A stretch of 33,902 nucleotides of DNA from Planctomycetota bacterium (GTDB lineage: Bacteria; Planctomycetota; UBA1135; UBA2386): the NCBI GenBank assembly GCA_036724695.1, contig DAIMFJ010000001.1, positions 1 through 33,902 on the forward strand, read 5' to 3'. This document shows positions 5,651 through 28,927 of the stretch, piece by piece. The position numbers and the translations under genes are program-made. Within the stretch, counting starts at the first letter, position 1; each line of letters starts with the position of its first letter. The notes below the pieces were generated by a model, which did no database searches, was not told the DNA's origin, and saw only the letters and a list, made by a program, of their open reading frames with translations.

Positions 5651-8611
5651 TCAGAAGCGGATCTCGCCACCGATCGACAGCGTGTAGTCGACGCCTTCGT
5701 GGTAGGAGGTCTTGGTGACGTCTGCCCCGATCGTGTCGCCGCGGTAGACTTCGCGGATCGACGGGTCGGTGAGGTTCTTGGCCTGGAAGACCAGCTTGAC
5801 GCCGCGGCCGAGGTTCTGGGTCAGGCTGAAGTTCAGGCGGTCGGTCTCGGTGGCGTACACGGTCGGTACGTAGCGGCCGTTCGACTCGCCGGCACCGGCG
5901 ACCAGCGTGTCACCGGTGACCGTGTAGAACAGGCCGAACTGCGTGCCGGTCGCCGCCAGATCCCAGGTCAGGAACACGTTGTAGAGGTGTTCCGGCGCGT
6001 TGGTCATCGGCCGTTCGGACATCGGCGCCTGGATGTTCGGCGCCTGGAACGCGAGTTGCTCGTCCTCCGGCAACTGCACCTTGCTGTCGATCAGGGTCGC
6101 GTTCGCACCGACGCCGACGCCTTCGAGCACGTCGACGAAATGACCCAGACTGTGGCGCGTCTCGAACTCCCAACCGCTCAGGCGACCGCTCGGGTAGTTC
6201 ACCGCCGTCGTGAAGTCGAACGACGAGATGCGCTGCACGTACTCGATCGGGCCTTCGAGGTCCTTCTGGAACCACGACACCGACCAGAGTCCGCCGTCGT
6301 ACGGCGTGTGGTCGAGCCGCACGTCGTAGTTCTTCAGGGCGCTCATCTGCAGGTCGGGATTGCCGATGAAGATCGGCCCGCCGGCGTACTCCTGCTGCAG
6401 GATCGGCGACAGTTCCTTGAACGTCTGGCGGGCGATCGTCTCGCTGTAGCCGAGCCGCAACGTCCACTTCTCGGCGGGCGTCACCACCATGCCCAGCGAC
6501 GGCAGCACGTCGTCCTGCGAGAAGTCGACGTCGGCGTCGCCAGGGTTCAGTTGCGTCGGTGCGGTGCTGCCCGGCGGCAGCCAGGTCGCGAAGGCCTCGG
6601 CCTCGTTGACGATGCCGATCCGCGTCGACTCGAAACGCACCCCGCCGATCAGGCTGACCGCGTCGAGCACCGGCACGTCGAGCATCAGGTAGCTCGCGTC
6701 GACGCGCATGCGGCCTTCGTAGTCGACGTCGAACTCCGATGCGCTGATCGGGTGGTTCTCGTACGGGAACGTCAGCGTCCAGCGCTGTTCCCACGGCGCG
6801 TTGAACGTGCTGTTGTCGCTGAAGTTGCTGAACGTGTCCTGGTCGAACGTGCGTTCGACGCGATCGCTGAACCAGCCGGTCTTGAAGTAGCCCTTCTCGT
6901 CCTCGCCGAACCGGAACGGCACCTTGAAGTTGACGTTCGCCTGTTCGCTGGTCTCCTCGATGACCTCCCAGACGCGCTGCAGGTTGCCGAGGGTGAACAC
7001 CGCGCCGGGCTTGAAGCCGACGTACGCCGGCGGGAACACCAACCCACCACCGGCGTCGAACCCCGGCGTCCACAGCGACCCGAACTGCCGTTTGTCCGGC
7101 TCGTTCGACTCGGCGCGCGACTTCGCGACCGTCCAGTCGAACACCGGGGCGAGGTCGTCGGCGAGCGTGCCGAGCTGCAGCGAGTGCCGACCGGACAACT
7201 GCAGCGTCTCGGTCGTGCGTTCCTGGTAGTTCAGCGTCTCGAGGCGCAGGTAGGGCGCCGAGTTGAACTGGAAGAAACCCGGCGACGCCTGGTTGGTCGG
7301 ATCGTAGCCAGGGTAGTAGTACTGCTTGCCGCGCGTGTCCTCGGCGATCGTCGCACTGTCCTCGGCACTGTGCGTGTACAGCTGCACGAACGTGATCGCG
7401 TGGTGCTCGCTCTCGATGCCGAGCGTCGCCAGTTCGCTCCACTGCACCGATTGCTTGCCCTGGCGCACGTCGAACAACGACGTCTTGAAGTCACCGTCCT
7501 GTGGCGTGCCTTGCACCGTCTTCGGCGACATCGGCTGGCCGGGGCTCTCGACCAGCCACGAGTCGTCGACGCCTTCGGTCAAGGCACTGTCGCGCTCGTA
7601 GAAGGCGCTGAACATGCCGCCGACCCGCCAACCGTCGGCGACCTCGAAGCTGGTCCCGAACGCGGTCGACAACTTGTAGTCGAGCGGGGCTTCGCCGTCG
7701 TCGACGCCGACCGCGCCGGCCCAGTTCTGGCCGAGTTTGTCGAGCTGCTGCGAACGGCGCGACGTGCCGCGCCCGAACGTGTCGAGGCCACCACCGTCGT
7801 AGGTCAGGAAGTCGGTGCGTCCGGTGACCTGCGTGTTGTGCTGCGTCTGCACGCGGTAGCGGAAGAACGACTCCTTCGGCACGCCCTTGAGGCGCACGTC
7901 GACGGCGCCGCCCGACGCATCGCCCTGCTGGTCGGGCGTGAACGTCTTGCTGACCTGGATGCTCTCGACCACCTCGGACGGGAACTGGTCGAGATCGACG
8001 GCGCGCTTGTCGGCGTCGGCGGTCGGCATGCGCACGCCGTTGAGCTGTGAACTGACATAGCGATCCGGAAGACCACGGATGACCGCGGACTTGCCGTCCT
8101 GCAGCGAGGCCCCGGCGACCAACCGCAGCGCCGCCGCCGCGTCGCTGGCGCCGGCCCGACTCATCAGGTCGGCGCCGACGCTGTCGAGCAGGGCTGGACT
8201 CTCGAAGCGCAACGCCAACAGCCCGGCTTCGCTGCTGCCCCCGACCGCGAGCACGTCCTGCACGACGAACTCCTCGAGGTCGGTGAAGTCCCCGGCCAGC
8301 TGGACGTCCAGATCGGTCAATTGGCCGCTCTGCACGACCACGCCGCTGCGCACGAGGCGCACGTAGCCTTCCTTGGCGAACACCAGCGTGTAGCGCCCCG
8401 GCGGCAGCTGCGGGATCGAGTAGTTGCCCTGGTCGCTGGTGACGACCACGAGGCCGGTCTCGACGACCGTGACCTGCACGCCCGGCAGCGAGTCGTCGAA
8501 GTCCTGGTCGCGCACCGAACCACGCACCGCACCCTGCTGCGCAGCGGCGGACGCGGCGATCGCCGCCGCGACGGCCGCGGCGAACAGATTGCGGATGCCG
8601 AGGTCTACCAC
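5651..8611 (-). CDS. TonB-dependent outer-membrane receptor with an N-terminal carboxypeptidase-regulatory-like domain
   Basis: This is the C-terminal 986 codons of ORF 5651-9838. The proposed GTG start at 8611 overlaps the upstream stop (GTGGTAG) and gives the signal peptide VVDLGIRNLFAAAVAAAIAASAAAQQ. A CarbopepD_reg-like segment (GYSIPQLPPGRYTLVFAKEGY) is followed by a plug (SAVIRGLPDRYVSSQLNG...ESIQVSKTFTPDQ), a long barrel and a terminal aromatic residue (...GGEIRF). The exact start is less certain than the gene call. Confidence 0.85.
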   Translation of the reverse strand: MVDLGIRNLFAAAVAAAIAASAAAQQGAVRGSVRDQDFDDSLPGVQVTVVETGLVVVTSDQGNYSIPQLPPGRYTLVFAKEGYVRLVRSGVVVQSGQLTDLDVQLAGDFTDLEEFVVQDVLAVGGSSEAGLLALRFESPALLDSVGADLMSRAGASDAAAALRLVAGASLQDGKSAVIRGLPDRYVSSQLNGVRMPTADADKRAVDLDQFPSEVVESIQVSKTFTPDQQGDASGGAVDVRLKGVPKESFFRYRVQTQHNTQVTGRTDFLTYDGGGLDTFGRGTSRRSQQLDKLGQNWAGAVGVDDGEAPLDYKLSTAFGTSFEVADGWRVGGMFSAFYERDSALTEGVDDSWLVESPGQPMSPKTVQGTPQDGDFKTSLFDVRQGKQSVQWSELATLGIESEHHAITFVQLYTHSAEDSATIAEDTRGKQYYYPGYDPTNQASPGFFQFNSAPYLRLETLNYQERTTETLQLSGRHSLQLGTLADDLAPVFDWTVAKSRAESNEPDKRQFGSLWTPGFDAGGGLVFPPAYVGFKPGAVFTLGNLQRVWEVIEETSEQANVNFKVPFRFGEDEKGYFKTGWFSDRVERTFDQDTFSNFSDNSTFNAPWEQRWTLTFPYENHPISASEFDVDYEGRMRVDASYLMLDVPVLDAVSLIGGVRFESTRIGIVNEAEAFATWLPPGSTAPTQLNPGDADVDFSQDDVLPSLGMVVTPAEKWTLRLGYSETIARQTFKELSPILQQEYAGGPIFIGNPDLQMSALKNYDVRLDHTPYDGGLWSVSWFQKDLEGPIEYVQRISSFDFTTAVNYPSGRLSGWEFETRHSLGHFVDVLEGVGVGANATLIDSKVQLPEDEQLAFQAPNIQAPMSERPMTNAPEHLYNVFLTWDLAATGTQFGLFYTVTGDTLVAGAGESNGRYVPTVYATETDRLNFSLTQNLGRGVKLVFQAKNLTDPSIREVYRGDTIGADVTKTSYHEGVDYTLSIGGEIRF

Positions 8612-9867
8612 GGGGCGCTGAGCTCCGACGCGATCGCCTCGACGCGCTGTACGAGGTCGGCGGGCGGAACGAAGCCACTGGCGAGCATCGCCAGGGTGGT
8701 CTTCGCGAGGTCTTCGACGCGCGGCCGACCGTTCGGGTTGGCCATGCCTTCGGTCAGCGCGAGGCGGAACGCGCTCGCGGCGCGGTCGCGATCGCCGAGC
8801 ACTGCGTAGCCGATCGCGATCGGGCGCAGCGCGTCGCCTCGGAACACGTCGACGATGCGTTCGCGCGTCGCTTCGTACTGCGCCATCGCGTCGTCGAGGC
8901 CGGCGCGTGCACCAGCCATGTCGCCGGCGCGGGCCAGCGAAGTGGCGACGCGCGCCCGCAGCGCCACCTGATCCTCGGGCAGCCAGCCCTTGCCGAGCAC
9001 CAGCGTGGTGCAGCGGTTGGCGAGCAGGCGCGCCACCTCGCGCTGCTCGGCGGCGGTCGCCGCGTCCGCGGCGGCGAGCAACACGTCGATGCGCATCGTC
9101 AGCGGCAGTTTCGGATAGGCGTTCTGCAACAGGTCGAGCAACCGCTCGCGCGCCGTTTCGTCGCCGGCGAAACGGGCCAACAGATGCACGCAGAGCTGCA
9201 ATGCGGGCTGCGCGCGGTCGACGTTCTCGCTGGCCAGCATCTGCTGCAGGTCGGCGATCTGGCGTTCGAGGTCCTGCGGGTCGAGCTGCGCGGCGCGCAC
9301 CTCGGCGAGGTTGGCCACCTCGGCGTCGACCAGCCCCTTGGTCAGTTCGCCGGCCGCTTCGTGGCGGCCCTGCGCCAGCCGCACCGCGGCGACCTTGGCG
9401 CGGATGCGGTCGCGACGCCACGCCTGCGCGTCGTCGCCGCGCATCGCGTCGTCGGCGATCTGCAGAGCCGAGGCCAGGAGCGCCTCGACGTCGGCGTCGA
9501 CCCGGTTCGCCACGCAATGGTCGGCGAGCTCGGCCAGGCACTGGCCGCGCTCCCAACCGCTGATGTCGGCACTCCAGGTGCGGGCACGCTCGAGCAGTCC
9601 GGCCTCGATGCAGCCGCCGACCAGCAACGCCTGGATGCGATTGCGGTTCTTGCGATGCGGGGCATCGGGCAGCAGGCCTGTCGCACGCCATGCTGCGGCG
9701 AGCAGCGCCTGGTGCTCGGGAGCGATCGCCGCGTCCGCGAAGGCACGCAACGCGGGCCCGGCCGTGGCAGGTGCCGCGACCGGCGAAGGCGACGTCGTAG
9801 CAGGTTCGCCGCAGGCCACCAGGGCCACGGCAGCGCACCTGGACTGGCTCTTGTGGTATATTCTCAT
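8605..9867 (-). CDS. Helical-repeat lipoprotein of unknown function
   Basis: ORF 8605-9978, trimmed to ATG 9867 (MRIYHKSQSRCAAVALVAC, canonical lipobox LVAC). The body is alpha-helical and Ala/Leu/Arg-rich with no recognisable catalytic motif. Its stop overlaps the receptor start. Confidence 0.7.
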   Translation of the reverse strand: MRIYHKSQSRCAAVALVACGEPATTSPSPVAAPATAGPALRAFADAAIAPEHQALLAAAWRATGLLPDAPHRKNRNRIQALLVGGCIEAGLLERARTWSADISGWERGQCLAELADHCVANRVDADVEALLASALQIADDAMRGDDAQAWRRDRIRAKVAAVRLAQGRHEAAGELTKGLVDAEVANLAEVRAAQLDPQDLERQIADLQQMLASENVDRAQPALQLCVHLLARFAGDETARERLLDLLQNAYPKLPLTMRIDVLLAAADAATAAEQREVARLLANRCTTLVLGKGWLPEDQVALRARVATSLARAGDMAGARAGLDDAMAQYEATRERIVDVFRGDALRPIAIGYAVLGDRDRAASAFRLALTEGMANPNGRPRVEDLAKTTLAMLASGFVPPADLVQRVEAIASELSAPW

Positions 9868-9941
9868 TCGGGCCCGGGGCGTGGCCCCCGGCAACGGACG
9901 GCTACGCGGCCGGCTGCCGCGCCGCGCGTTACTACTAACGT

Positions 9942-9966
9942 CGGCCGCGGCTCTGGGCCGCGGCCG
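9942..9966 (-). terminator. All-GC 10-bp hairpin just after the beta-helix gene stop; candidate attenuator or partial terminator inside the operon
   Basis: CGGCCGCGGC-tctgg-GCCGCGGCCG is a perfect inverted repeat lying 9 nt downstream of the stop at 9975-9977. On the mRNA strand it is followed by ACGUUAGUAGUAA, which is only weakly U-rich. Confidence 0.3.
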
Positions 9967-9974
9967 GCGGCAGC

Positions 9975-11879
9975 TCACGGCAGGATCTTGGTGACCGCGT
10001 TGGTCGCGGCGATGCCACCCGGGGCGGCGTTGTCGAACACCAGCGCCTGCGCGTAGACCGGAATGCCCGAGAAGCCGTTCGGGAAGGTCAGGTTCTGCGA
10101 GCCGCTCAGCGTGCCGACGTAGCCGAACGTGTTGATGTTCGGGACCAGCGTGACCGCCGGGATGCCGATGCCGCCGAGGTTGAAGTCGGCGCGGGCGAAG
10201 CCGAAGCAGAACGCGTTGAAGCTGATCGCCGGCCCGTTGGCGATCGAGAACGTGGTCGGCTGGCCGGCCGCGGCCGTGCCGGCGACCTGCAGGACCGGCG
10301 CGCCACTGCCGCCGCGAGCCGAGGTGCCGAGGTCGGTCCAGTTGTCACCGCGGACCATGAAGCCGTAGGCGTCGGCAGCGGTCCAGCCGAGCGTCCAGTT
10401 GGTGGTCGGCGCGAACGCACCGCGGTAGCGGGCGGCGTCGAAGAACGAGTCGACCGCGTAGTTGGCCGAGACGAGCGCGTCGGCGGCCGGGCGCGGGTCG
10501 AGCGAGTTGACGTTGGCGACCGTGTTCGAGCCGCTGACGATCACCGCGGCGGCGCGACCCAGCGACTGGATCGGCATCGACGTGGCCTGCACGTTGTTGT
10601 TGCCGGCCGCGAACACGTTGTTGGCGTTGGCGGTCGTGTAGGCCTGGGCGTGCTGGTTGCGGTAGAAGACGTTGTCGGTGAACTCGATCAGGTTGCCCGA
10701 GGTCTGGGCCGTGTAGAACGCGGCCGGGTTCGCCGGGGCGTTGACCGTCGAGTAGGTGTTGTACGGGGTCGTCCACAGCGCGGCGAACGACAGCGTGCCG
10801 TTGTGGCCGTAGCCGAGGCCACCGTCACCGTCGACGTTGTCGTTGCGGATCACCTGCTCGCCGAGGTCCAGGAAGATCGAGTTGCGGACCTGCAGACGCG
10901 CGTTGTCGCGGAACGCGACGCCGTGGTCGCTGCCGCCAGCACCACCGGTGACCGGGGTCGTCGGCGCGCCGATGACGGTGAAGTTGTAGAGGGCCGCGGT
11001 CGTGACCGGCTGGTAGTCCGATTGCTCGGCGCCGTCGATCTCGATCGCGTTGTCGCCCCAGCCCGAGCCCTGGCTGCCCGGCACGCTGTAGCCCTGGACG
11101 ATCAGGCCGTATTGGGCCTTGCCGCGCCAGCCCTGGTCGACGTCGAAGCTGTCGTCGCCGATGTTCCAGATGCTGATGTTCTTCAGGTTGACCGTGCCAC
11201 CCCAGATCTCGATGCCGTCGTCGACATTGTTCATGATCTCGACGTGGTGGATGTCGGTGCCGCGGCCGATGCCGCCGAGCGACAGGCCGTTGAGCTCGTT
11301 GTTCAGCCCGATCACGCGGCCGCCGTAACGGAACGACACGTAGCTGAGCGTGCCGCTGTCGTCGTTGTCGTTGCCGCCGCCGTACAGGACCTTGGTGTCA
11401 CCGGGGAAGCCGGCGACCAGGCCTTCCATCGTGCCGACGTTGTTGGCGTTCGGGGTGGCGGTGTTGGTGTTGGGGTTCAGGTTCTCGCTGATGTACGCGG
11501 AACCCATGATCGTCAGGTTGCCCCACTCGTTGGCGGCGGCGCGCCAGGTGCCGGTCTTCGGGTCGTTGTTCGTCCAGGTCGCGACGTCGGCCTTCGAGGT
11601 GAAGATCACCGGCGCCTTCTCGGTGCCGTTGACGAAGATCTGCGCGCCGCGGGTCACCGCGAGGCTGCCACCGAGGCCGGTGTCGCTGGCGATGATGGTG
11701 CCCGCTTCGATGGTCAGCGTGGCGCCGGGCAGCACGTAGATCTGCTGCTGCAGGTTGTAGCGGTTGTTCGCCGTCCAGGTGGTCGACGTGGCGATGTTGC
11801 TCGTGACGAGCACTTCGGTCTGGGCGAGGGTCGCGCTGGTCAGCGCGGCGGTCGCCAGCAGGAGCTTGGTAGCGTTCAT
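9975..11879 (-). CDS. Secreted protein with a parallel beta-helix-like core, first gene of the receptor cluster; function unknown
   Basis: 634 aa with a signal peptide (MNATKLLLATAALTSATLAQ). Conserved blocks are NEWGNLTIMG, DDSGTLSYVSFRYGG, ELNGLSLGGIGRGTDIHHVEIMNNVDDGIEIWGGTVNLKN and DDSFDVDQGWRG. I recognise these from an uncharacterised family that I recall being found next to TonB-dependent receptors. There is a separate ~110-aa C-terminal domain. Confidence 0.8.
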   Translation of the reverse strand: MNATKLLLATAALTSATLAQTEVLVTSNIATSTTWTANNRYNLQQQIYVLPGATLTIEAGTIIASDTGLGGSLAVTRGAQIFVNGTEKAPVIFTSKADVATWTNNDPKTGTWRAAANEWGNLTIMGSAYISENLNPNTNTATPNANNVGTMEGLVAGFPGDTKVLYGGGNDNDDSGTLSYVSFRYGGRVIGLNNELNGLSLGGIGRGTDIHHVEIMNNVDDGIEIWGGTVNLKNISIWNIGDDSFDVDQGWRGKAQYGLIVQGYSVPGSQGSGWGDNAIEIDGAEQSDYQPVTTAALYNFTVIGAPTTPVTGGAGGSDHGVAFRDNARLQVRNSIFLDLGEQVIRNDNVDGDGGLGYGHNGTLSFAALWTTPYNTYSTVNAPANPAAFYTAQTSGNLIEFTDNVFYRNQHAQAYTTANANNVFAAGNNNVQATSMPIQSLGRAAAVIVSGSNTVANVNSLDPRPAADALVSANYAVDSFFDAARYRGAFAPTTNWTLGWTAADAYGFMVRGDNWTDLGTSARGGSGAPVLQVAGTAAAGQPTTFSIANGPAISFNAFCFGFARADFNLGGIGIPAVTLVPNINTFGYVGTLSGSQNLTFPNGFSGIPVYAQALVFDNAAPGGIAATNAVTKILP

Positions 11880-13249: not shown

Positions 13250-13265
13250 GCGGTAGGATTTGGGG

Positions 13266-14855
13266 ATGCGCGGCATCGTGATGCGGTGGTGTTCGGCGGT
13301 GGCTCTGTCGGCGGCGCTGGCCTGCGGCCAGACGGCGGCGGTCGAGCGACCGGTTTTCGAGGTGACGACGGTTGGGCCGGCTGGCTGGCGGGCTCGGCTG
13401 GGGCCGACGAACGTCGGCTCGCTGCTGGCCAGCGCCACCGGGGAGCGGCTGTGGCAGCCGCTGGTCGCGTCGTTGCGCACGGTGCTGGCCGACAACGAAG
13501 CGGTCGACGCCGATCTGCTGGCGAAGTGGCGCGACTACCACGGGCAGGTGTGGCTCGCAGTCTGGTCGGATCCCTTCGACCGGACGTCACCTACCGTGGC
13601 GATCGTTCTGCATGGCGACGGCAAGAGCGACCTGGCCGCACTGGCCAAGGACACGGCGCGCGTGCTGGGTACCGACCTGCAGGCCCCGATGCGCCTCTGC
13701 GGCCCGGTGATGGGCGACGACCGCGTCGGCTTCTACCTGACGTCCGCCGCCGAGGTCGACGCGGCCCTGGTCACCTACCAGTCCTTTGCCGATCGGCCGC
13801 GCGCGCCGCTGCCGCCGCAGGCACCAGCCTTGTCTGCCTCGCTCGACCTGGCGCAGCTGGTGACGGCCGCGACCGAGCGCGCCGACGACCAGGACGGCAA
13901 CCGCGCGCTCGGCCTACCCAGCCTGCAGCGCCTCGGCCTGGCGATCGGCGCGGCAGGTCCGCAGGTGCACTTCCGCACCGACCTGCAGTTCGCCGACCAG
14001 CCGCTGGGCATCTTCGCCGGCATCTTCCCACCGGCAACGCAACAACCCAACCTGCTGCACCTGGTGCCAGACGACGCGCGGCTGTGGCGCGCGACCCGCT
14101 TCGACCTGGCCACCGTCGCCAAGGCCGGACTCGACGCCTTTGCCGCGTACGAAGGCGTGCCGCCTGCCGAACTCCGCACGCGAGTGCGCGACGACCTCGG
14201 CTTCGACCTCGAGCAGGACCTGCTGGCCCACCTCGGCGACGAAGTCTTGTTCGCCATCGTGCCCGAAGCCGACGCCAGCGACGACGACGAATGGCAAGCC
14301 GATCGCGTCAACTGGACCCTCGGCTGGCGCCTGCGCGACGCCACCGCCTTCGCCGCGGGCTGGCAGAAGCTGCTCGACAGCGCCGGGCCGAACGTCACCA
14401 ACGCCGCCACCATCGACGTCGACGGAGCGCAGGCCCATCGCTGCGGCACCATCTTCCTCTACGACATCTGGTGGTCGACCGCCCACGGCATGCTGACCCT
14501 CGCCGGTGGCCGCGACGCCGAAGCCCTGATCACCCAACAGCTGACCCGCCTGAAGCAACCGCCCCCCGCGGCCCCCAAGCCGCCGCCCGCGTTCGCGAAC
14601 CTGCAACGCCACCTGCCACCCGGCACCTACGGCCTGGGCAGCAGCAACCTCTACTGGCTCGGGCTGGCCCCGGCCGGCCTGTTCGGCCTGCTCGCCGACG
14701 ACCTGCTGCTCCTGGGCCCCGCCCGCCACCTGTTCGACGACCCCGAACTCGACCGCGACACCCTGCTCGACCTCCTGCAGGTCCACCACCTCGACCGCAC
14801 CCACCTCGCCGTCGCCCGCCTCGCCAACACCTTCTCCTATCACCTTTTCTGGTAA
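13266..14855 (+). CDS. Secreted hypothetical protein
   Basis: ORF 13260-14855; I prefer ATG 13266, with AGGA 9 nt upstream. It has a signal peptide (MRGIVMRWCSAVALSAALACGQ) and strong G/C3 bias throughout. No motif was recognised. Confidence 0.7.
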   Translation: MRGIVMRWCSAVALSAALACGQTAAVERPVFEVTTVGPAGWRARLGPTNVGSLLASATGERLWQPLVASLRTVLADNEAVDADLLAKWRDYHGQVWLAVWSDPFDRTSPTVAIVLHGDGKSDLAALAKDTARVLGTDLQAPMRLCGPVMGDDRVGFYLTSAAEVDAALVTYQSFADRPRAPLPPQAPALSASLDLAQLVTAATERADDQDGNRALGLPSLQRLGLAIGAAGPQVHFRTDLQFADQPLGIFAGIFPPATQQPNLLHLVPDDARLWRATRFDLATVAKAGLDAFAAYEGVPPAELRTRVRDDLGFDLEQDLLAHLGDEVLFAIVPEADASDDDEWQADRVNWTLGWRLRDATAFAAGWQKLLDSAGPNVTNAATIDVDGAQAHRCGTIFLYDIWWSTAHGMLTLAGGRDAEALITQQLTRLKQPPPAAPKPPPAFANLQRHLPPGTYGLGSSNLYWLGLAPAGLFGLLADDLLLLGPARHLFDDPELDRDTLLDLLQVHHLDRTHLAVARLANTFSYHLFW

Positions 14856-14948: not shown

Positions 14949-15623
14949 TCAACGCGTGCTGGAGCGGCGGTAGACCATCAGGCGGCCGCGGAAGGCGGCG
15001 CGGTCGGCGTTGGCCGTGGCGTCGCACCGTTCTTCTTCCCTGGCGAACCCCTGGCCATGCATGTGGCGATGGAAGGCGCTGCGGTTGCCGCGGTCGGGAT
15101 CGACGATCCAGACCTCGGCGTCGGCCGCCGCGTGGCGAGCCAGGAACTGCGCCAGCGTGCCGCGCGCGTCGGGCTCGTAGAGCAGGTCGCTGCCGATCAC
15201 CAGATCGAACGGCTGCCCCACCTGGCGGGCCACTTCGGCCCACGGTCCGTGCCGGTAGCGCAGCGGCGCCATGCCGTTGAGGCGCACGTTCTCGCGCAGG
15301 AAGGCCGCCGCCAGGGGGTGCACATCGCACGCCGTCACGTCGGCGCCGCGGCGATGCCCGACCATGCTCGCCAGCGCGAGCCCGCAGCCGACCTCGAGGA
15401 TGCGCTCGCCAGCCCGCACCGGCCGCCGCGCCATGCGATCGGCGAGCTGCAGCCCGGACGGCCACACCAGCCCGAACAGCGGCCAATTGGCCGGCGAGAT
15501 GCCGCGCGCCGCCGCCAGGCCGTTCGGGTCGCAGAACTGCTGGTCGTCGAGCAGCGAACGCACGACCAGGTCGTCGACGCCGAGGATCGGAATGCGCTGC
15601 TGTTTGGTCGCGTACTGGGTCAT
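14949..15623 (-). CDS. Class I SAM-dependent methyltransferase (protein-lysine methyltransferase-like)
   Basis: 224 aa. It has SAM motif I (ILEVGCGLALASM) and a post-I acidic residue (VTACDV), then DLVIGSDLLY, typical of the Methyltransf_16-like group. Confidence 0.8.
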   Translation of the reverse strand: MTQYATKQQRIPILGVDDLVVRSLLDDQQFCDPNGLAAARGISPANWPLFGLVWPSGLQLADRMARRPVRAGERILEVGCGLALASMVGHRRGADVTACDVHPLAAAFLRENVRLNGMAPLRYRHGPWAEVARQVGQPFDLVIGSDLLYEPDARGTLAQFLARHAAADAEVWIVDPDRGNRSAFHRHMHGQGFAREEERCDATANADRAAFRGRLMVYRRSSTR

Positions 15624-15742: not shown

Positions 15743-17692
15743 TCACCGCCCAGCCGCCGCGCCGGGCAACGCGGCGAAGAACGCCCAGATCGCCGCAGTC
15801 GCATCCCACGGGAACGGCTGGTCGGCGCGCCGCGTGGTCCGCTCGGCCGCCCCCGGCCACGCATGCCCGCCACCCTCCAGCTGCACGACGCGCACCGGCG
15901 CCCCGCCGCCCGCCGCGGGCGCGTACTCGTCGACGACCACCTGGCCCTCGACGCTGCGCTTGGCCTCGGCCGCGCAACCGTTGCGCCGCACGTAGTAGTC
16001 GATCGCCGCCTGCAACGACGCGTCCAGGCGATCCCCAGCCTTGCCGATCGCGACCTCCGGAACGCCCCCCTCGATGCGCACGTGCCGATCCGCGGTACCG
16101 TGGATCAGCAAAGCTGCGATCGGCGTCGCCGCCTCGACCGCGGTGAAGTTCATCGCTCCCGCCACCGCCGCGAACCCCGCGAACACGTCCGCCGCCTCGC
16201 GCGCCAGCCGGTGGCACAGCATCGCCCCGTTGCTGTGCCCGACCGCGAACACACGCTGCGGATCGATCGCCGTGCGCCGCTGCACCGTGCGCACCACCTC
16301 GCGCAGGAATCCGACGTCGTCGACGCCCTGTTCGCTCGCGTAGACCTTGATGCCCCCGGCGTTCCAGGTCAGCAGCCGCCCGCGCAGCGGCCCGGTCCCG
16401 TCCGGAAACGCCACCACGAACCCCTCCCGCGCCGCCAGCTCCGCGAACCGCGTCGTCGCCGCGACCTGCTCGCCGTTGCCACCACCACCGTGCAGCACGA
16501 CGACCAACGCCGCACCGACCCCCTGCGGCCCCAGCTGCGGCTTCGCCGGCACGAACAGCGAGAACCGCCGCGTGCGGCCACCGTGCTCGAGCTCGACCAC
16601 CACCGATTCGCCAGCCTGTGCTGGCCCCTGCAGCACCTCACGCACGACCGCCTGCACCGTCTCCAACCGCGGCAGCACGCGCGTCGCCCGGTCGCGGATC
16701 GCCAGCACCCCGCCGATGCCCAGATCGAGGTCCAACCACGGCGTGAACCCGAACGCGCCCGGATCGCACGCGCGCAGCCACGTGCCTTCCGGCCGCACCA
16801 ACCACGAACCGAACCCATAGCGCACGCCCGCGAACGCCTCGCCGTAGTCGTTCGGCGTGCGCACCAGGACCGGCTCGGGCACCTGATCGCGCAGCAACGC
16901 CGCCACCGATTCGCGCGTCAACACCCGCCGCCCGCCGAACTCCCCCTCGGCGAGCAACATCTGCACGAACCTCGTGTAGTCCGCCAACGTCGACACCGCC
17001 GCCCCGGCGACCCCCGGCAACTTCGTCGTGCCCGGATCCGCCCCGAACGGCAGCATCGCCGCGAACTTCGTCGCCGCCATGCCCAGCGGCCCGCCGACGC
17101 GTTCGGCGAACAGCGTGTGCCAGTCCTTGCCGGTCACCCGCTCCGCCGCGATGGCCGCGATCTGGAACGTCACGCCGCCATACCGGAACGCCGTGCCCGG
17201 GGCATCGCGCAGCGACGCATCCGCCGCCACCGCCGCGAACTTCGCATTGTCCCAGTCGCGCTGGTTGCCCGGCAGCCGGCTCGGCCACCCGGCACTGCAC
17301 GACAGGCACTGCCGCAGCGTCACCGCCCGCTTGTCCGGGCGATCGAGTTCGACCACGTAGCGGCCGATCGGCGCATCGAGGTCGAGCAAGCCCTCGTCGA
17401 CGACCGCCAGCACGGTCGCCACCGCCAGCCACTTGCTCGCCGACGCGATCGGCATCGGCTCGTCGGCCAGCAGCCCGCGGTGCAGGCTCTGGTGCACGAC
17501 CTCCTGGCCACGCAACACGACCAACCCGGCCGGCGCGCGCCCGAGCCCGTCGAGCATCGTGTCGACGGCGGCGGCGATCGCCTCGACGCGCGGCGGCTCG
17601 ACCGGCGCACCCGGCGCGACCGGCCGCCCTGGCTCTTGTGCCAGCACCACCGCACCCAGCACCCCCGCGACGAAAATCGACCTGCGCAGCAT
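15743..17692 (-). CDS. Fusion protein: beta-lactamase-fold serine hydrolase (N-terminal) plus PHB-depolymerase/LpqC-type alpha/beta esterase (C-terminal)
   Basis: ORF 15743-17968, trimmed to ATG 17692 (AAGGA 7 nt upstream; MLRRSIFVAGVLGAVVLAQ signal peptide). The N-terminal half has the S-x-x-K motif (IASASKW). The C-terminal half has LVVVLHGGGGNG, DDVGFLREVV and the nucleophile elbow GHSNGAM. Confidence 0.8.
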   Translation of the reverse strand: MLRRSIFVAGVLGAVVLAQEPGRPVAPGAPVEPPRVEAIAAAVDTMLDGLGRAPAGLVVLRGQEVVHQSLHRGLLADEPMPIASASKWLAVATVLAVVDEGLLDLDAPIGRYVVELDRPDKRAVTLRQCLSCSAGWPSRLPGNQRDWDNAKFAAVAADASLRDAPGTAFRYGGVTFQIAAIAAERVTGKDWHTLFAERVGGPLGMAATKFAAMLPFGADPGTTKLPGVAGAAVSTLADYTRFVQMLLAEGEFGGRRVLTRESVAALLRDQVPEPVLVRTPNDYGEAFAGVRYGFGSWLVRPEGTWLRACDPGAFGFTPWLDLDLGIGGVLAIRDRATRVLPRLETVQAVVREVLQGPAQAGESVVVELEHGGRTRRFSLFVPAKPQLGPQGVGAALVVVLHGGGGNGEQVAATTRFAELAAREGFVVAFPDGTGPLRGRLLTWNAGGIKVYASEQGVDDVGFLREVVRTVQRRTAIDPQRVFAVGHSNGAMLCHRLAREAADVFAGFAAVAGAMNFTAVEAATPIAALLIHGTADRHVRIEGGVPEVAIGKAGDRLDASLQAAIDYYVRRNGCAAEAKRSVEGQVVVDEYAPAAGGGAPVRVVQLEGGGHAWPGAAERTTRRADQPFPWDATAAIWAFFAALPGAAAGR

Positions 17693-17790: not shown

Positions 17791-18183
17791 ATGCGCCCCT
17801 CCACCACGCTCCGCGCCGCCGCCCTGCTCGCCGGCACCGCCGTCGCGCTCGGCGCGTTCGCCGCGCACGGCATGAAACCCCACTACGAACCCGCCCAACT
17901 GGCGACGTTCGAAACCGGGGTCCGCTACCAGATGTACCACGCGCTGGCGCTGGGCCTGTGCGCGGCACTCGCCGCCGCCGGCTGGCGCACGCGCGGCGCC
18001 GAACTCGCGTTCCTGGCCGGCATCGCGTTGTTCTCGGGCTCGCTGTACGGGCTGGTCTGGCTCGACGCGCGCTGGCTCGGCCCGGTGACCCCGCTCGGCG
18101 GGGTCGCGTTCCTGGTCGGCTGGCTGCTGCTGGCCCTGTCGCGCCGCGATCCGACCTTGGTGGCCGACCGGGCGGCGTCCTAA
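17791..18183 (+). CDS. DUF423 (YgdD/TMEM256-like) small membrane protein
   Basis: ORF 17638-18183, trimmed to ATG 17791. 130 aa with four hydrophobic helices and the family-typical AAHG and YQMYHALAL segments. Confidence 0.75.
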   Translation: MRPSTTLRAAALLAGTAVALGAFAAHGMKPHYEPAQLATFETGVRYQMYHALALGLCAALAAAGWRTRGAELAFLAGIALFSGSLYGLVWLDARWLGPVTPLGGVAFLVGWLLLALSRRDPTLVADRAAS

Positions 18184-18198
18184 ACTCCCGGACGCACC

Positions 18199-18429
18199 AT
18201 GCACATCACGATCGACTACTGCGTCGTTTGAAACTACCGCCCCACGGCAGCCAGTCTGGCCGCCGCGATCACCGCCAAGCACCCGGCGGCCAAGGTCGAA
18301 CTGCGACCCGGCGGCAAGGGCGACTTCGTCGTCAAGGCCGGTGACCGCCTGCTCTGGGACAAGAAGGGCCGCGACGGCGGCGAGTTCCCGGAGCCCGAGC
18401 AGATCCTGAGCCAGCTCGCCAAGGCCTGA
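18199..18429 (+). CDS. selW: SelW/Rdx-family selenoprotein with an in-frame UGA (Sec) at 18229-18231
   Basis: Not in the ORF track. Translation: MHITIDYCVV-U-NYRPTAASLAAAITAKHPAAKVELRPGGKGDFVVKAGDRLLWDKKGRDGGEFPEPEQILSQLAKA, with the stop at 18427-18429. The TGA falls on the second redox position of the Rdx C-x-x-C/U motif. G/C3 bias continues on both sides of the TGA. A SECIS-like hairpin lies downstream. Confidence 0.85.
18245..18265 (+). promoter_or_regulatory. Candidate bacterial SECIS hairpin
   Basis: CGGC-A-GCC-AGUCU-GGC-C-GCCG begins 14 nt after the UGA. The apical CAGUCUG resembles my recollection of the E. coli fdhF SECIS apex (CAGGUCUG). This was folded by eye only. Confidence 0.5.
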
Positions 18430-18431
18430 GC

Positions 18432-19394
18432 GTGCCCCCGCGGGCCCTCATCGTCACGCCGGCAGCGCGCGGCAGCCGCAGCGGCAACCGCACGACGGCT
18501 CTGCGCTGGGCGGCGATGCTGCGCCAATGCGGCCTCGCCGTCGCGGTGCGCGAGCAGTGGCGCGGCGAACCCGTCGACCTGCTGGTCGCAGTGCACGCGG
18601 TCAAATCGCGCGACAGCGTGCTGGCGCACCGCGCCGCGCATCCGCACGGCAAACGCATCGTGCTGCTGGCCGGCACCGACGTCTACCCGACGTTCGCGCC
18701 CGACGCGACGACGCTGGCCGCGCTGGCCGCCGCCGACGCGATCGTCACGCTGCAGCCACTGGCGCAGCAGGTGTTGCCGGCCGACCTGCGCGGCAAGGCC
18801 CGCACGATCGTGCAGTCGGCCACCACGATCGCCAGCGCTGCACGGCCGGCGCACCCCTTCGCGGTGCTGGTGCTGGCGCACCTGCGCGCGATCAAGGACC
18901 CGCTGCTGCCGTTCGCGGCGCTGGCGTTCGTGCCGCGCGACCTCGACGTCACGATCACGCTGGCCGGGCAGGCCCTCGACACGGCACTCGGGCACGCCGC
19001 GACCGCTTGGGCGGCGCGCGACCCGCGCGCCCGGTACGTCGGCGAACTCGACCGGCGCACGGCCCGGCAGCAGATCGCCTGCAGCCACCTGCTGGTCGTG
19101 CCGTCGGCCGCCGAAGGTGGCGCCAACGTCGTCAGCGAAGCGATCGCCGCCGGCACGCCGGTGGCCGCCACCGCGGTGCCGGGCAACCTCGGGCTGCTCG
19201 GCGCCGACTGGCCGGCCTTGTTCCCGGCCAACGACGCCCGCGCCCTCGGCACCCTGCTGGCGACGCTCGCCAGCGCGCCAACGCAGTACGCGGCACTGCT
19301 GCAGCGCACGCTGGCCCTGCAGGACATGGTGGCGCCGGCGACCGAACTCGCCGCGTGGCGGCAGCTGCTGCGCGAGCTGGGTCTGGCGAACTGA
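18432..19394 (+). CDS. GT-B fold glycosyltransferase resembling the SenB (TIGR04348) selenosugar-synthase family
   Basis: 320 aa. The GTG start lies 2 nt after the selenoprotein stop. The N-terminus is IVTPAARGSRSGNRTTALRWAAML. Other blocks are LLAGTDVY and AHLRAIKDP, plus a C-terminal GT4-like block HLLVVPSAAEGGANVVSEAIAAGTPV. The CDS call is strong. The SenB-type assignment is from memory of family motifs, at about 0.5. Confidence 0.8.
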   Translation: MPPRALIVTPAARGSRSGNRTTALRWAAMLRQCGLAVAVREQWRGEPVDLLVAVHAVKSRDSVLAHRAAHPHGKRIVLLAGTDVYPTFAPDATTLAALAAADAIVTLQPLAQQVLPADLRGKARTIVQSATTIASAARPAHPFAVLVLAHLRAIKDPLLPFAALAFVPRDLDVTITLAGQALDTALGHAATAWAARDPRARYVGELDRRTARQQIACSHLLVVPSAAEGGANVVSEAIAAGTPVAATAVPGNLGLLGADWPALFPANDARALGTLLATLASAPTQYAALLQRTLALQDMVAPATELAAWRQLLRELGLAN

Positions 19395-19597
19395 CGCGGC
19401 GGACCATCGGCACAGGCGCTGCCGAGACGATTTTTCGGCCGACCCGACAACTCGCGACACCGCCAGCCAGCGCCACGCGGCGGCGCCAGAACCACAACCT
19501 GTAGTGGTATCCGCCAGATTGCCCCGCTACCGCTCCGTCAACCATGGCAAGCCACCTGCCCCCCGGTGCGCGACTCCAGGCAGTCCCCCTCCATGCC

Positions 19598-19873
19598 ATG
19601 AACATCCCCACCAAACACAGCCCCTCCCAACGCACCGCGATCTGCGACTCCCTGCGCCGCCTGTCCGCGCCGCACGCGCTGCACTTCGGCAACGAACTGC
19701 TGGCCCGCAGCAACGACGGCACGATCGCGTTCGGCACGTTCCTCGACATCGCGCGCGAATGGGTCGCGCACCTGCCCGACGAGACGGCCTTCTACCTGGC
19801 CTCGCTGATCGCGCTCGACATGAGCGACGACCTGACCGAGTTCCGCACCCCGGTCGAGCCGTCGCGGAACTGA
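19598..19873 (+). CDS. Small hypothetical protein (91 aa)
   Basis: ORF 19544-19873; I prefer ATG 19598 (MNIPTKHS). It has strong G/C3 codon bias and no recognised motif. Confidence 0.55.
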   Translation: MNIPTKHSPSQRTAICDSLRRLSAPHALHFGNELLARSNDGTIAFGTFLDIAREWVAHLPDETAFYLASLIALDMSDDLTEFRTPVEPSRN

Positions 19874-27024: not shown

Positions 27025-27524
27025 CGTTTGGCCTCGAGGTGGTAGGCCGCGACGACGAAGTCGAAGTCGACGCGATCGCCGGGGACCGGGCGGAGCTTGA
27101 CTGTGCCGATCGAGAACAGCCGGGAGTGACCCTCGAGCTCGGCGAGGAACGCGCAGCACGCGGGCAGTGCCGCGGTACCGCTGAACTGGAACGAGGTGCG
27201 ACCGGCCTCGGTCGACGGATTCGGACGGCAACCGCGCGAGGTCACGGCGTGGCGTTCGGCCAGCGACAGCACGAGGTCGAGCGTCTCGGCGACCGCCGGT
27301 TGATCCGCGAGTCGGGGCCCGACCGGCTTGGTCTCGACGACCGGGGCCGCGGCCTCCGGCGCCGGATCGGGTTCGAGTCCGGTCGGACCGACGTCGACCA
27401 CGGTGGACTGCAGGCGGGCGGCGGCGTCGTGATGCAACCAGGACATGGCCCCCGCAGCGAGCACGGCCAGGCCGGCGCAACCGTAGGTGACCGCGGACCA
27501 GACCGTTTGACGATCGAAGCGCAT
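27021..27524 (-). CDS. PilO/GspM/MshJ-like bitopic assembly protein
   Basis: ATG 27524 (MRFDRQTVWSAVTYGCAGLAVLAAGAMSW, TM segment). A Pro/Ala linker is followed by a ferredoxin-like C-terminal block (FQFSGTAALPACCAFLAELEGHSRLFSIGTVKLRP...FDFVVAAYHLE). Confidence 0.6.
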   Translation of the reverse strand: MRFDRQTVWSAVTYGCAGLAVLAAGAMSWLHHDAAARLQSTVVDVGPTGLEPDPAPEAAAPVVETKPVGPRLADQPAVAETLDLVLSLAERHAVTSRGCRPNPSTEAGRTSFQFSGTAALPACCAFLAELEGHSRLFSIGTVKLRPVPGDRVDFDFVVAAYHLEAKR

Positions 27525-28927
27525 CAGCCGTTCCTCCACTGCAGTTCCGCGGTGAACCGGTAGCCGTGCGGCAGCCCGGTCCATTCGACGATCTCCTCGC
27601 CACTGCCGCTGCGCACGTACGGCAAGGCCCGCACGCCGCGCAGGAACCGCGCCAGCTTGTCGAGGGCCTCGCGACGCGAGGCCCCACCGACGTAGCCGCC
27701 GATGCGGATCCGGTCGTCGTTGCCGGTCTCGAAGTTGTCCAGACGGACTTCGCCGGCGTCGCCGGCGAGGTCGGCCAACAGCAGGCTGTAGGGGCGGCGG
27801 CGGCCCAAGGCGCGCGCGAGTTGTTCGGCGTGGGCCTGTTGCGCCGGATCGACCGCAGCCTCGGCATCCGGACCGGCGAGGCGGCTGGCCAACGCCTCCT
27901 CCTGCAGCCTCGCGATCTCCTGCAGCTGCGCTTCGGCGGCGCGCCAGGCGCCGTGCTGTTGCGCGCCGAACCACGCGGCGGCCCCGAACACCGCGATCGC
28001 GCCGGTCATGCCGAGCACGCGGCCGACCGAGACCGGCACGATGACCCGTTGCGTCGACAGCATCGAGCCCGGGGCGACACCGCGGCAGATCGCGTTCAGG
28101 AGGGCGCTGGTGGCCAGCGATGGCCGCGCCGAGCCTTCGTCGACGGGGATGTCGATGTCGACCCCTCTCGTCGGCGGCAGCGCCGTCGGATCGGCCTGCA
28201 CGGCTTGCAGCGCCGCATGGGCGCGCGGACCGAGGGTCATGCCGGCGATCTCGCCGAGGCCGGCCTCGCGCAGCCAATCGAGCGTGCGCGGCAGTTCGAG
28301 CTGCAACTGCATCCCGGCCGCTTCCGCGTCGGCACTGCCGTTGCCGGTCATGAAGCGCCGCACCTGCACGACGTCGCCGCCGTCGCAGACGACGAAGCGG
28401 GTGCGGCCGCACCCGGTCTCCACGACGGCGGTGCGTTGCTTGCCGGTCGCCGCCAGGGCGAGACAGGCCTCCGTCGAGTACGCGCCGACCGCGGTGAGCT
28501 TGGCGGCCTGCAGCATGCGCAGCACCGGCTCCCAGACCTGCTTGGGCATCGCCGCCAACGCGAACTGCAGCTTGCCGCCGCGCCGCTGCACGGGGCCGAC
28601 GCCGCGCAGCACCTCGGTCGGCGCGCCGACCGAGCAGAGGCGCATCGCCTCGCGGGCGACCAGTTCCTGCAGCTCGGCGGCGGGCAGGTTGGGCACGTCG
28701 CAGCGATGGTGCTGGATGCGGCGATCGCCGAGCACGACGTGCACCGGGGCACCCTCGGGCAGACGGTCGACACGCAGCGCCGACAAGGCGCCAGCCAACG
28801 TCGCTGGCGATTGGTCGGTCAGCGGCACATACGACGTGAAGGACGAGACGATCCGACGACCGCGGCGTTGGGCCACGGTGACGGTCAGCGCCCCTTCCTC
28901 CAGTTCGACGACGGCGAGGATGTTCAT
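27524..28927 (-). CDS. PilM-PilN fusion (GspL/MshI-like) assembly protein
   Basis: 467 aa. An N-terminal ~300-aa actin-like cytoplasmic domain is followed by a TM segment (VLGMTGAIAVFGAAAWFGA), a coiled coil and a PilN-like periplasmic domain (VRLDNFETGNDDRIRIGGYVGGASRREALDKLARFLRGV). A TGATG overlap links it to the next gene. Confidence 0.75.
   Translation of the reverse strand: MNILAVVELEEGALTVTVAQRRGRRIVSSFTSYVPLTDQSPATLAGALSALRVDRLPEGAPVHVVLGDRRIQHHRCDVPNLPAAELQELVAREAMRLCSVGAPTEVLRGVGPVQRRGGKLQFALAAMPKQVWEPVLRMLQAAKLTAVGAYSTEACLALAATGKQRTAVVETGCGRTRFVVCDGGDVVQVRRFMTGNGSADAEAAGMQLQLELPRTLDWLREAGLGEIAGMTLGPRAHAALQAVQADPTALPPTRGVDIDIPVDEGSARPSLATSALLNAICRGVAPGSMLSTQRVIVPVSVGRVLGMTGAIAVFGAAAWFGAQQHGAWRAAEAQLQEIARLQEEALASRLAGPDAEAAVDPAQQAHAEQLARALGRRRPYSLLLADLAGDAGEVRLDNFETGNDDRIRIGGYVGGASRREALDKLARFLRGVRALPYVRSGSGEEIVEWTGLPHGYRFTAELQWRNG

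Follow-up and report, generated by a model that had tools for sequence, protein, structure and literature searches.

A SelW-like selenoprotein gene adjoining a SenB-family glycosyltransferase gene in one lineage of Planctomycetota

A gene for a SelW-like selenoprotein lies directly upstream of a gene for a SenB-family glycosyltransferase in the 33.9-kb stretch of Planctomycetota DNA analysed here (the window), and throughout one monophyletic clade of Planctomycetota SelW precedes SenB, in all 30 loci that are informative. Judged from sequence comparison, the locus looks like a variant of the selenoneine (sen) locus specific to this lineage and not a proven new selenium pathway, and functional coupling of the SenB-type enzyme to the selenoprotein is plausible. 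SenB is among the very few known enzymes that form Se-C bonds.

Gene organisation and the selenocysteine codon

Three plus-strand genes encoding a DUF423 protein, a SelW/Rdx-like protein and a glycosyltransferase were found where a first-pass annotation of the DNA had placed them, separated, as it had reported, by gaps of 15 nt (18184-18198) and 2 nt (18430-18431). The features of the region are as follows.

17791-18183, plus strand: DUF423 (YgdD/TMEM256-type) small multi-pass membrane protein, 130 aa; ATG start, TAA stop; PF04241
18199-18429, plus strand: SelW/Rdx-like selenoprotein gene, 76 codons, CVVU redox motif; ATG start, TGA stop; PF10262, TIGR02174, NF041051
18229-18231, plus strand: in-frame TGA read as selenocysteine, codon 11; kept in clade orthologues and metagenomic homologues
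18246-18264, plus strand: putative bacterial SECIS hairpin; stems 18246-18253 and 18257-18264, loop GUC 18254-18256
18432-19394, plus strand: SenB-type Se-glycosyltransferase of the TIGR04348 family, 320 aa; GTG start, TGA stop; 2 nt past the SelW stop
19407-19435, plus strand: terminator-like hairpin and T-run 3' of the glycosyltransferase stop; consensus scan, weak
19598-19873, plus strand: conserved 91-aa protein with no function assigned, C-terminus PS-x-N, probably helical; orthologues in clade loci

Coding is supported by a GC3 of 0.85-0.93 in the three frames (~0.9 for the DUF423 gene) and by conservation of all three proteins across ~30 other genomes, and the GTG of the glycosyltransferase is the sole in-frame start downstream of the preceding stop. 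The three genes are probably co-transcribed in this high-GC Planctomycetota genome, and the transcription unit may extend to the downstream 91-aa gene. A consensus scan gave two terminator-like hairpins in the region against 0.7 expected, and a scan for sigma-70-type promoters gave no site, including between SelW and senB, a result that is uninformative for a planctomycete of 70% GC. The absence of senA and of a selD-like senC from the window, remarked on in the first-pass annotation, was confirmed by tblastn, while ARAGORN detected no tRNA(Sec) in the window and an Rfam scan of it returned zero matches, with no SECIS model among them. Of the Sec-decoding genes selA, selB, selC and selD, the window contains none.

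The DUF423 protein matched PF04241 with 90.9 bits (cut-off 25), sharing its Pfam family, size and multi-pass membrane character with E. coli YgdD and human TMEM256. Different from YgdD, the gene here is the first of a probable operon that also encodes a selenoprotein and a selenosugar synthase, and it is dispensable in four of 29 clade loci: an orthologue stands upstream of SelW in the other 25 informative loci and has been lost from L003, L007, L024 and L033, all of which keep SelW and SenB. We know of no selenium link for YgdD. Of the 33 clade loci informative for the 91-aa gene, 27 have it downstream of the glycosyltransferase, L033 with its differing flanks among them, and it is annotated as such on other contigs. 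Its product had zero Pfam or NCBIfam matches, and the AF2 single-sequence model was of low confidence (pLDDT 62); the gene is a possible fourth member of the cluster.

Read with Cys in place of Sec, the SelW-like protein scored 60.9 bits against PF10262 (cut-off 22.6), 49.9 bits against TIGR02174 (cut-off 34.2) and 73.3 bits against NF041051, and the in-frame TGA gives the motif C-V-V-U. This UGA is kept in 31/31 clade orthologues, with conserved sequence on either side, and also in 80 metagenomic SelW-like genes from other lineages; a DNA motif scan revealed the nucleotide core TGARACTAC...CCRGTYTGG as common to more than 120 metagenomic SelW-like genes. A hairpin with an 8-bp stem and the loop GUC begins 15 nt past the UGA. 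Support for it comes from explicit pair counting only, by which 83.7% of cells in a 30-sequence alignment were paired, compared with 22-52% when the partner was slid, and three pairs carried compensatory changes; RNAalifold retained only the three apical pairs, and the single-sequence fold of the post-UGA region was no better than shuffles (z = -1.19).

On this pattern of conservation, the SelW-like gene is a genuine Sec-encoding selenoprotein gene, and the Sec-containing thioredoxin-fold protein of the first-pass annotation is upheld by both the invariant UGA and the conserved hairpin after it. The gene resembles bacterial SelW-like genes (Rdx, TIGR02174; Zhang & Gladyshev; PMC1088965, PMC1794560, PMC2398784) in its product of ~75 aa, its N-terminal CxxU and the hairpin after UGA, and differs from those of other lineages in its adjacency to SenB, which is peculiar to this Planctomycetota clade (80 loci examined, ~45 with enough flank). 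The Sec gene was skipped by gene callers, and a protein homologue search with SelW (U read as C) gave only two fragments, because Sec genes are truncated in protein databases.

The SenB-family enzyme and its ties to the selenoneine locus

The first-pass annotation had assigned the glycosyltransferase to SenB from sequence motifs, all of which occur in the translation (LIVTPAARGSRSGNRTTALRWA, LLAGTDVY, AHLRAIKDP and AEGGANVVSEAIAAGTPV), EGGANV being the commonest form of its motif among senA-linked enzymes. The comparison with general GT4 models that it had proposed put the SenB model far ahead: TIGR04348 matched with 295.6 bits (E 3.5e-88, profile positions 2-309 of 310), 4.4 bits short of the equivalog cut-off of 300, and the runner-up family reached 91 bits, some 200 below. 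The clade straddles this cut-off, and its sister proteins are named by NCBI as SenB, as "TIGR04348 family" or plainly as "glycosyltransferase". Solved SenB chains matched with E values from 2.5e-49 to 6.3e-48, the alignment spanning residues 3-316 of 320 for 8jjn, 8jjq and 8fbx and residues 3-279 for the top-scoring 8k5u.

The residues on which SenB catalysis depends are likewise in place. In SenB, N20, T23 and E231 contact the sugar, K158 serves Se-P cleavage and E239 the ribose, and H58, R61, T83, T85 and R155 form the SeP pocket (PMC10891094). N20, T23, H58, T85, D86, R155, K158, E231 and E239 are conserved in the window enzyme, in which the equivalents of the positions with assigned roles are N19, T22, E228, K155, E236, H55, K58, A80, T82 and R152. 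Among the listed positions it has substitutions at just two, K for R61 and A for T83, and the same residues occur in senA-linked SenBs (K in 11/35, A in 3/35); T83 to A is the sole clade-typical change. Across 33 clade and 35 senA-linked sequences the mutagenesis-defined residues are conserved, the one exception being a clade sequence with T at the K158 position. With the SenB model so far in front and the catalytic residues intact, the glycosyltransferase belongs, as far as homology can tell, to the SenB family and not among ordinary GT4 enzymes, as first proposed.

A neighbour-joining tree of SenB placed the SelW-linked proteins in one monophyletic clade, with the senA-linked L032 as sister and L027/L029 basal. 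Two early-branching clade members, L027 and L083, have the order DUF423-SelW-methyltransferase (minus strand)-SenB-SenA, with senA overlapping senB. The SenA of L027 matched NF041186 with 486 bits (cut-off 420), and the downstream gene of L083 encodes a 71%-identical homologue with the same DinB_2 and FGE-sulfatase domains. The proposal in the first-pass annotation that the module acts independently of selenoneine is thus not established.

senA is absent within 10 kb in 28 of the 30 clade loci, and tblastn found no SelD-like gene (senC) in L001-L034. Among 46 senB loci outside the SelW-linked clade, mostly senA-linked, only 12 have a SelD-like gene within 10 kb, so its absence nearby is common. 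The nearest relatives of the clade's SenA include products of orphan senA genes with no senB nearby (L081, L082 and L207), and a senA could therefore sit elsewhere in the window's genome. L027 SenA has a single close relative (71%), the rest, Chloroflexota SenAs included, being at most 65% identical, and a large clade-specific SenA group is therefore not evident, at identity levels that cannot tell orthologues from other SenAs.

With the senABC selenoneine cluster (Kayrouz & Seyedsayamdost 2022; bioRxiv 10.1101/2022.04.13.486033) the locus shares a SenB/TIGR04348 enzyme of GT-B fold with the same catalytic residues, an expected dependence on selenophosphate and, in L027 and L083, the overlapping senA. 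It differs in that the window has neither senA nor senC and in the SelW-like and DUF423 genes before senB and the 91-aa gene after it, none of which is described as a component in the sen-cluster literature, as far as searched. The ovs (ovoselenol) cluster, in which ovsA and ovsM occur with senB/senC (PMC11030361), is alike in its reuse of the senB(/C) cassette with other partners, and there senB/senC are sometimes chromosomally separated from the partner genes (PMC11030361); the partners here are neither an NHISS enzyme nor an OvoM-type methyltransferase. The literature search also agreed with the earlier remark that no SenB wired to a selenoprotein had been described, as no account of a SenB-selenoprotein link was found.

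Conservation of the linkage and alternative readings

Neighbourhoods were scored by tblastn with the window's real genes, as generic ORF clustering was swamped by spurious high-GC ORFs. Conservation of the adjacency in related genomes, a check named in the first-pass annotation, was obtained in part: the adjacency recurs in ~30 species-level genomes, but these represent a single Planctomycetota lineage in which the whole neighbourhood is syntenic, the clade loci sharing ~15-20 kb. The suggested survey of SenB homologues for neighbouring Rdx/SelW and DUF423 genes gave a similarly divided answer, positive within the clade and negative for all 46 SenB loci of other lineages (L031-L032, L035-L080), which lack both and mostly carry senA instead of SelW. 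Conversely, 80 metagenomic SelW-like loci of other lineages were sampled, of which 44 had 1.3 kb or more of downstream flank and 45 as much upstream, and none of these had a SenB, senA or DUF423 gene beside SelW.

The spacing of the pair varies within the clade. Among the 16 loci without the methyltransferase, 12 have -4 to 13 nt from SelW stop to glycosyltransferase start and four have 46-87 nt, while in 15 of 30 clade loci an antisense methyltransferase gene of ~700 nt lies between SelW and senB. The co-translation proposed earlier for the window is permitted, but not demonstrated, by the 2-nt gap, and as the antisense gene intervenes in half of the clade, such coupling is not common to all members. 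The inserted methyltransferase is a class I, lipoprotein-like enzyme with a lipoprotein-type signal peptide and no close named family, its best but weak matches being of ArsM/UbiE type; its patchy distribution across the tree suggests repeated deletions. The window has a methyltransferase gene of its own at 14949-15623, which was considered as the counterpart of the inserted one and rejected as a different gene.

It is a serious possibility, to which we give somewhat less than even credence, that SelW and SenB are neighbours by descent: a general-purpose redox selenoprotein and a housekeeping DUF423 protein preserved next to senB since one ancestral rearrangement, with no functional interaction, the SelW and senB frames having simply closed up after loss of the methyltransferase, as its repeated deletions would suggest. 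Unrelated genes are retained in the same syntenic block (beta-lactamase/esterase 24/25, unk531 19/21, DUF1501 16/30), and with the esterase kept in 24/25 loci against 30/30 for SelW, the conserved adjacency is hardly above background and says little on function. Other lineages have abundant SelW-like genes that share the UGA and hairpin core, of which those flanked by 1.3 kb or more have no SenB; SelW is in turn missing near SenB in the 46 loci of other lineages, and the four losses of DUF423 left SelW and SenB behind. Against simple descent, however, SelW-SenB is the sole adjacency kept in 100% of informative clade loci, and L033, the only locus with the pair in another context, has had both flanks replaced and yet retains SelW, the glycosyltransferase and the 91-aa gene. 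The shared strand and close spacing in most methyltransferase-less loci imply co-expression, and the coincidence that both products depend on selenophosphate suits a functional theme.

Unlikely, in our estimate, is the selenoneine-independent module of the first-pass annotation, in which senA has been lost from most members and the selenosugar is an end product for storage, detoxification or export, with SelW as reductase or carrier, DUF423 for membrane passage and, in some genomes, the methyltransferase possibly modifying the selenosugar. The scarcity of senA near senB in the clade and in the window, the single close relative of L027 SenA and the ArsM/UbiE-type matches of the methyltransferase are in its favour, as is E. 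coli YgdD, for which a part in the import of peptides through the inner membrane is reported. Two clade members nevertheless have senA joined to the cluster, orphan loci supply some of the SenAs most closely related to that of the clade, identity levels cannot separate SenA orthologues from others, and a lipoprotein-type signal peptide is odd for a SAM-dependent cytoplasmic reaction.

More doubtful still is a selenium-gated arrangement, in which ribosomes would reach senB mainly by finishing SelW and thus need Sec-tRNA(Sec) at codon 11, so that the selenophosphate-consuming SenB would be made only once selenoprotein synthesis is satisfied. The early position of the UGA, 198 nt upstream of the senB start, the short gaps of the window and of most methyltransferase-less loci, and the lack of a sigma-70-like site between the genes in the uninformative promoter scan are consistent with such gating. 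However, senB must have its own promoter and start in the half of the clade with the antisense insertion, four further loci have gaps of 46-87 nt, and the rules of planctomycete translation initiation are poorly known. Finally, it is highly improbable that the enzyme is an ordinary GT4 sugar transferase without a selenium role, since the small shortfall from the TIGR04348 cut-off and the matches to generic Pfam GT1-group domains are set against a SenB score ~200 bits above any other family, full-length alignment to solved SenB structures, conservation of mutagenesis-tested SeP-, UDP- and sugar-binding residues and clade relatives that adjoin a verified SenA.

Proposed roles and significance

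The reading that we prefer, at about even credence for the whole, is a derivative of the sen locus with a SenB-type synthase and SelW as accessory partner. The SenB-type enzyme would make a 1-seleno-sugar from selenophosphate and a UDP-sugar, which in characterised SenBs is UDP-GlcNAc or UDP-Glc; the selenophosphate would be supplied by a housekeeping SelD, which any Sec-decoding bacterium must have. The SelW-like protein would most likely be an accessory redox partner, which might maintain in reduced form the air-sensitive selenol of the selenosugar or of selenoneine, or resolve intermediates of the SenA reaction in which Se is oxidised, and DUF423 may be a component for membrane passage. We know of no established function for bacterial SelW-like proteins and of no experiment that ties Rdx proteins to selenosugars. 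A bolder version, in which the selenoprotein and the selenometabolite pathway are wired together, with SelW as dedicated selenol reductase or carrier or with UGA decoding gating the synthase, and in which the selenosugar is perhaps the end product where senA is missing, seems unlikely.

As automatic annotation leaves the Sec gene uncalled, it hides the SelW-senB link. The present data justify SelW-SenB coupling as a hypothesis for one lineage only. If true, the tight SelW-SenB operon would offer a testable hypothesis on what keeps selenosugars or selenoneine reduced and on the targets of SelW-like proteins, and it would for the first time connect genetically two branches of selenium use, that of selenoproteins and that of selenometabolites.

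The SenB-family glycosyltransferase and its neighbours

The trio proposed in the first-pass annotation, with three plus-strand genes at 17791-19394 separated by gaps of 15 nt (DUF423/SelW) and 2 nt (SelW/glycosyltransferase), was confirmed, the GTG of the glycosyltransferase being the sole in-frame start past the upstream stop.

Features of the trio and its borders
15743-17692, minus strand: secreted beta-lactamase-fold/PHA-depolymerase-like esterase gene, divergent, immediately 5' of the trio
17791-18183, plus strand: DUF423 gene (ATG to TAA), 130 aa; PF04241, 90.9 bits
18199-18429, plus strand: SelW/Rdx-like gene (ATG to TGA), 76 codons; PF10262, 60.9 bits; TIGR02174, 49.9 bits against a cut-off of 34.2
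18229-18231, plus strand: in-frame TGA of the SelW-like gene, yielding C-V-V-U
18246-18264, plus strand: putative hairpin of 8 bp with loop GUC, beginning 15 nt past the UGA
18432-19394, plus strand: glycosyltransferase gene (GTG to TGA), 320 aa
19407-19435, 3' of the glycosyltransferase gene: terminator-like hairpin and T-run
19598-19873, plus strand: 91-aa protein gene, with homologues ~100 nt downstream of the glycosyltransferase in the related loci L001-L034

The glycosyltransferase matched the NCBIfam model TIGR04348 ("selenoneine biosynthesis selenosugar synthase SenB") with 295.6 bits (E 3.5e-88, profile positions 2-309 of 310), 4.4 bits under the 300-bit equivalog cut-off, the next family reaching 91 bits. 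The solved SenB structures 8k5u, 8jjn, 8jjq and 8fbx matched with E values of 2.5e-49 to 6e-48, and three of the four alignments covered residues 3-316. Key SenB residues established by mutagenesis and structure (PMC10891094) were retained, the only departures among the mapped residues being R61 to K and T83 to A, variants also seen among senA-linked SenBs.

Key SenB residues and their counterparts in the window
Sugar binding: N20, T23, E231; window N19, T22, E228
Se-P cleavage: K158; window K155
Ribose binding: E239; window E236
Selenophosphate pocket: H58, T85, D86, R155; window H55, T82, D83, R152

All four SenB motifs named in the annotation were located in the enzyme, and "EGGANV" is the majority form of its motif in senA-linked SenBs. 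The model score, structure matches and retained residues led to rejection of an ordinary GT4 identity, upholding the earlier assignment; judged by its sequence, the glycosyltransferase is a SenB-family enzyme with predicted activity.

Outside the trio, the window (70.6% GC as a whole) holds ordinary planctomycete genes without a selenium theme. TPR, TonB, ExbB/D and TonB-receptor genes, unknown genes, a HEAT-repeat protein and a methyltransferase lie 5' of the trio, while the 91-aa unknown gene, DUF1501, a PSCyt2/PSD1 protein, secretin and type II secretion/pilus genes follow 3'. The esterase protein combines a beta-lactamase fold (PF00144) with a C-terminal esterase scoring 149.7 bits against NF050058 (extracellular short-chain PHA depolymerase; cut-off 150). 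As had been claimed, the window contains neither senA nor selD/senC homologues by tblastn; tRNAs and Rfam matches were likewise absent from it. Four genes encoding 457-634 aa, each with a strong coding signal, gave no match in Pfam or NCBIfam (8605-9978, minus; 9975-11879, minus; 13260-14855, plus; 27524-28927, minus), the second and third being conserved in position in related MAGs.

The selenocysteine codon of the SelW-like gene

The TGA occurs at the identical codon in orthologous SelW genes of 29 genome loci and one Logan contig, with strong protein conservation on both sides ("EYCVV-U-NY"). Across 30 sequences the post-UGA hairpin was paired in 83.7% of cells versus 22-52% in slid controls, with compensatory changes in three pairs, and it was not convincing by single-sequence folding or RNAalifold alone. 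The core TGARACTAC-N3-CC-N4-GC-N2-CCRGTYTGG retrieved >120 metagenomic stretches, and all 80 examined loci carrying it encoded ~75-aa CxxU proteins 35-51% identical to the window SelW, which represent the bacterial SelW-like family of the Zhang and Gladyshev surveys (PMC1088965, PMC1794560, PMC2398784). The conserved TGA and flanking protein, the hairpin and the metagenomic homologues together mark the UGA as a Sec codon, in line with the selenoprotein proposed earlier.

The DNA motif TGARACTACNNNCCNNNNGCNNCCRGTYTGG, consisting of the Sec codon and hairpin core, is common to >120 SelW-like genes from lineages with 35-51% protein identity (L086-L165), and offers a convenient way to find members of this selenoprotein family, which lacks annotation.

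An organism that decodes Sec must have selD, selA, selB and selC. We infer from the Sec codon that all four are present here, and hence that selenophosphate is available to SenB.

Automatic gene calls leave a gap at the SelW position (locus L208), no called gene of the Logan contig L083 covers SelW, and in the protein database it is represented only by fragments of 42-49 aa. Since gene callers miss SelW, its adjacency to SenB is invisible in standard annotations. No paper was found linking SenB/TIGR04348 to an Rdx/SelW selenoprotein or DUF423, in agreement with the view that the link was undescribed.

Conservation of the trio

Scanning 185,579 species genomes yielded 346 SenB relatives, of which the best 80 were examined. 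L001-L034, all Planctomycetota MAGs, encode enzymes ~49-64% identical to that of the window, except the senA-linked L031 (47%). The SelW-linked enzymes were monophyletic in an NJ tree, with the senA-linked Planctomycetaceae L032 as sister and L027/L029 basal. Among informative loci of this clade (L001-L034 minus L031 and L032, plus L083), SelW was located at most 1.3 kb upstream of the glycosyltransferase gene in 30/30, DUF423 was found in 25/29 and the 91-aa gene downstream in 27/33. The adjacency described in the annotation held within the clade but not beyond it: in the 46 SenB loci outside (L031-L032 and L035-L080, among the best 80 of 346), which span many phyla, HMM search detected no Rdx or DUF423 genes, and senA was directly adjacent, usually upstream, in most.

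Clade loci share the entire neighbourhood with the window, in the order HEAT protein, unk531, esterase, the trio with the 91-aa gene, DUF1501, PSCyt and secretin. As the evidently unrelated esterase is kept in 24/25 and unk531 in 19/21, the 30/30 of SelW barely exceeds background synteny, and clade-wide conservation is weak evidence for function. Pure inheritance of neighbouring genes is a credible, though less than probable, account of the SelW-SenB pairing. One locus discriminates: L033 keeps SelW, the glycosyltransferase and the 91-aa gene together though both flanks are replaced (response regulator, RluD-like, histidine kinase and EamA upstream; a different large ORF downstream). The 91-aa gene may therefore be a true cluster member. 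Its product belongs to no family, has the core "..SLRRL.xPHAL.FG..LL.RG..G.I.F.EF..VARE......P.Q.A.YLAALVALDM", always ends in PS-x-N, and was modelled as four helices at low confidence (AF2 single-sequence, pLDDT 62).

In the reverse direction, 80 SelW-like loci of other lineages were inspected, and no SenB, senA, DUF423 or methyltransferase gene lay beside SelW where at least 1.3 kb was available (44 downstream, 45 upstream). A phosphofructokinase-like gene lay just downstream in 14 of the 80, and a selD-like gene ~1.2 kb away in three (L088, L125, L158). The absence of SenB indicates that SelW-like proteins are of general use, the pairing with SenB having been acquired specifically in this lineage. 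Comparison of loci gives little evidence that SelW and SenB are functionally coupled.

Proposed role and relation to selenoneine

In the proposed mechanism, DUF423, SelW and SenB would be co-expressed, as their common strand, their spacing and the terminator-like site suggest. SenB, from its family and conserved residues, would convert selenophosphate, supplied by housekeeping SelD, and a UDP-sugar to a 1-seleno-sugar. Speculatively, the CxxU protein may maintain the selenols in reduced form or act on oxidised Se intermediates to resolve them, with DUF423 possibly helping membrane passage; these roles are drawn only from co-location, Rdx chemistry and the reported contribution of E. coli YgdD to peptide uptake. 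The package as a whole is held with moderate confidence.

A selenosugar as a selenoneine-independent end product would be compatible with this package; senA is not nearby in 28/30 clade loci, nor in the window. The MAG locus L027 and L083 are ordered DUF423, SelW, antisense methyltransferase, SenB and SenA, with senA overlapping the senB stop by 4 nt in L083. The L027 SenA scored 486 bits against NF041186 (cut-off 420) and its L083 homologue is 71% identical, so in the members that branch earliest the SelW/DUF423 association occurs alongside a genuine selenoneine synthase. The closest relatives of L027 SenA include the canonical senA-senB pair L206 and the orphan senA loci L081, L082 and L207 (64-65% identical to the clade SenA; senB absent within 6-8 kb). 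A context of MarR, Polyketide_cyc2, senA, peptidase M1 and BrxC-like genes is common to L082 and L207; L081 has a divergent, unrelated methyltransferase beside senA. Such orphans indicate that senA and senB are often unlinked, and senA could well sit elsewhere in clade genomes. Only one SenA in the database exceeds 65% identity to that of L027, so widespread senA loss in the clade is also conceivable. A selenoneine-independent end product is rated as rather unlikely.

In 15/30 clade loci the antisense gene (~235 aa) separates SelW from senB and is transcribed divergently from the latter.

Antisense methyltransferase genes
L003, 1444-2148, minus strand
Equivalent position: L005, L006, L007, L011, L013, L015, L019, L020, L021, L024, L027, L028, L030, L083

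Its product is class I SAM-methyltransferase-like with a lipoprotein-type (lipobox) signal peptide, e.g. MRSILLALSLLLMAAC, and its best NCBIfam matches are weak (ArsM/UbiE-type). An exported SAM enzyme, as predicted from the lipobox signal, is odd. The patchy distribution on the tree suggests ancestral presence with repeated loss. The window trio lacks this gene, and the SelW stop lies -4 to 13 nt from the senB start in 12/16 methyltransferase-less loci (2 nt in the window). The tight spacing emphasised in the annotation is real in the window, yet a derived, non-universal state, which limits the appealing possibility that Sec decoding controls SenB translation. Such control, though compatible with the co-expressed package, is quite improbable.

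Work on ovoselenol shows that the senB cassette also combines with different partner genes (PMC11030361). The locus is a sen-type locus of a planctomycete in which a Sec-encoding gene lies beside senB and, with its SenB chemistry predicted, a source of hypotheses for the function of bacterial SelW-like proteins.
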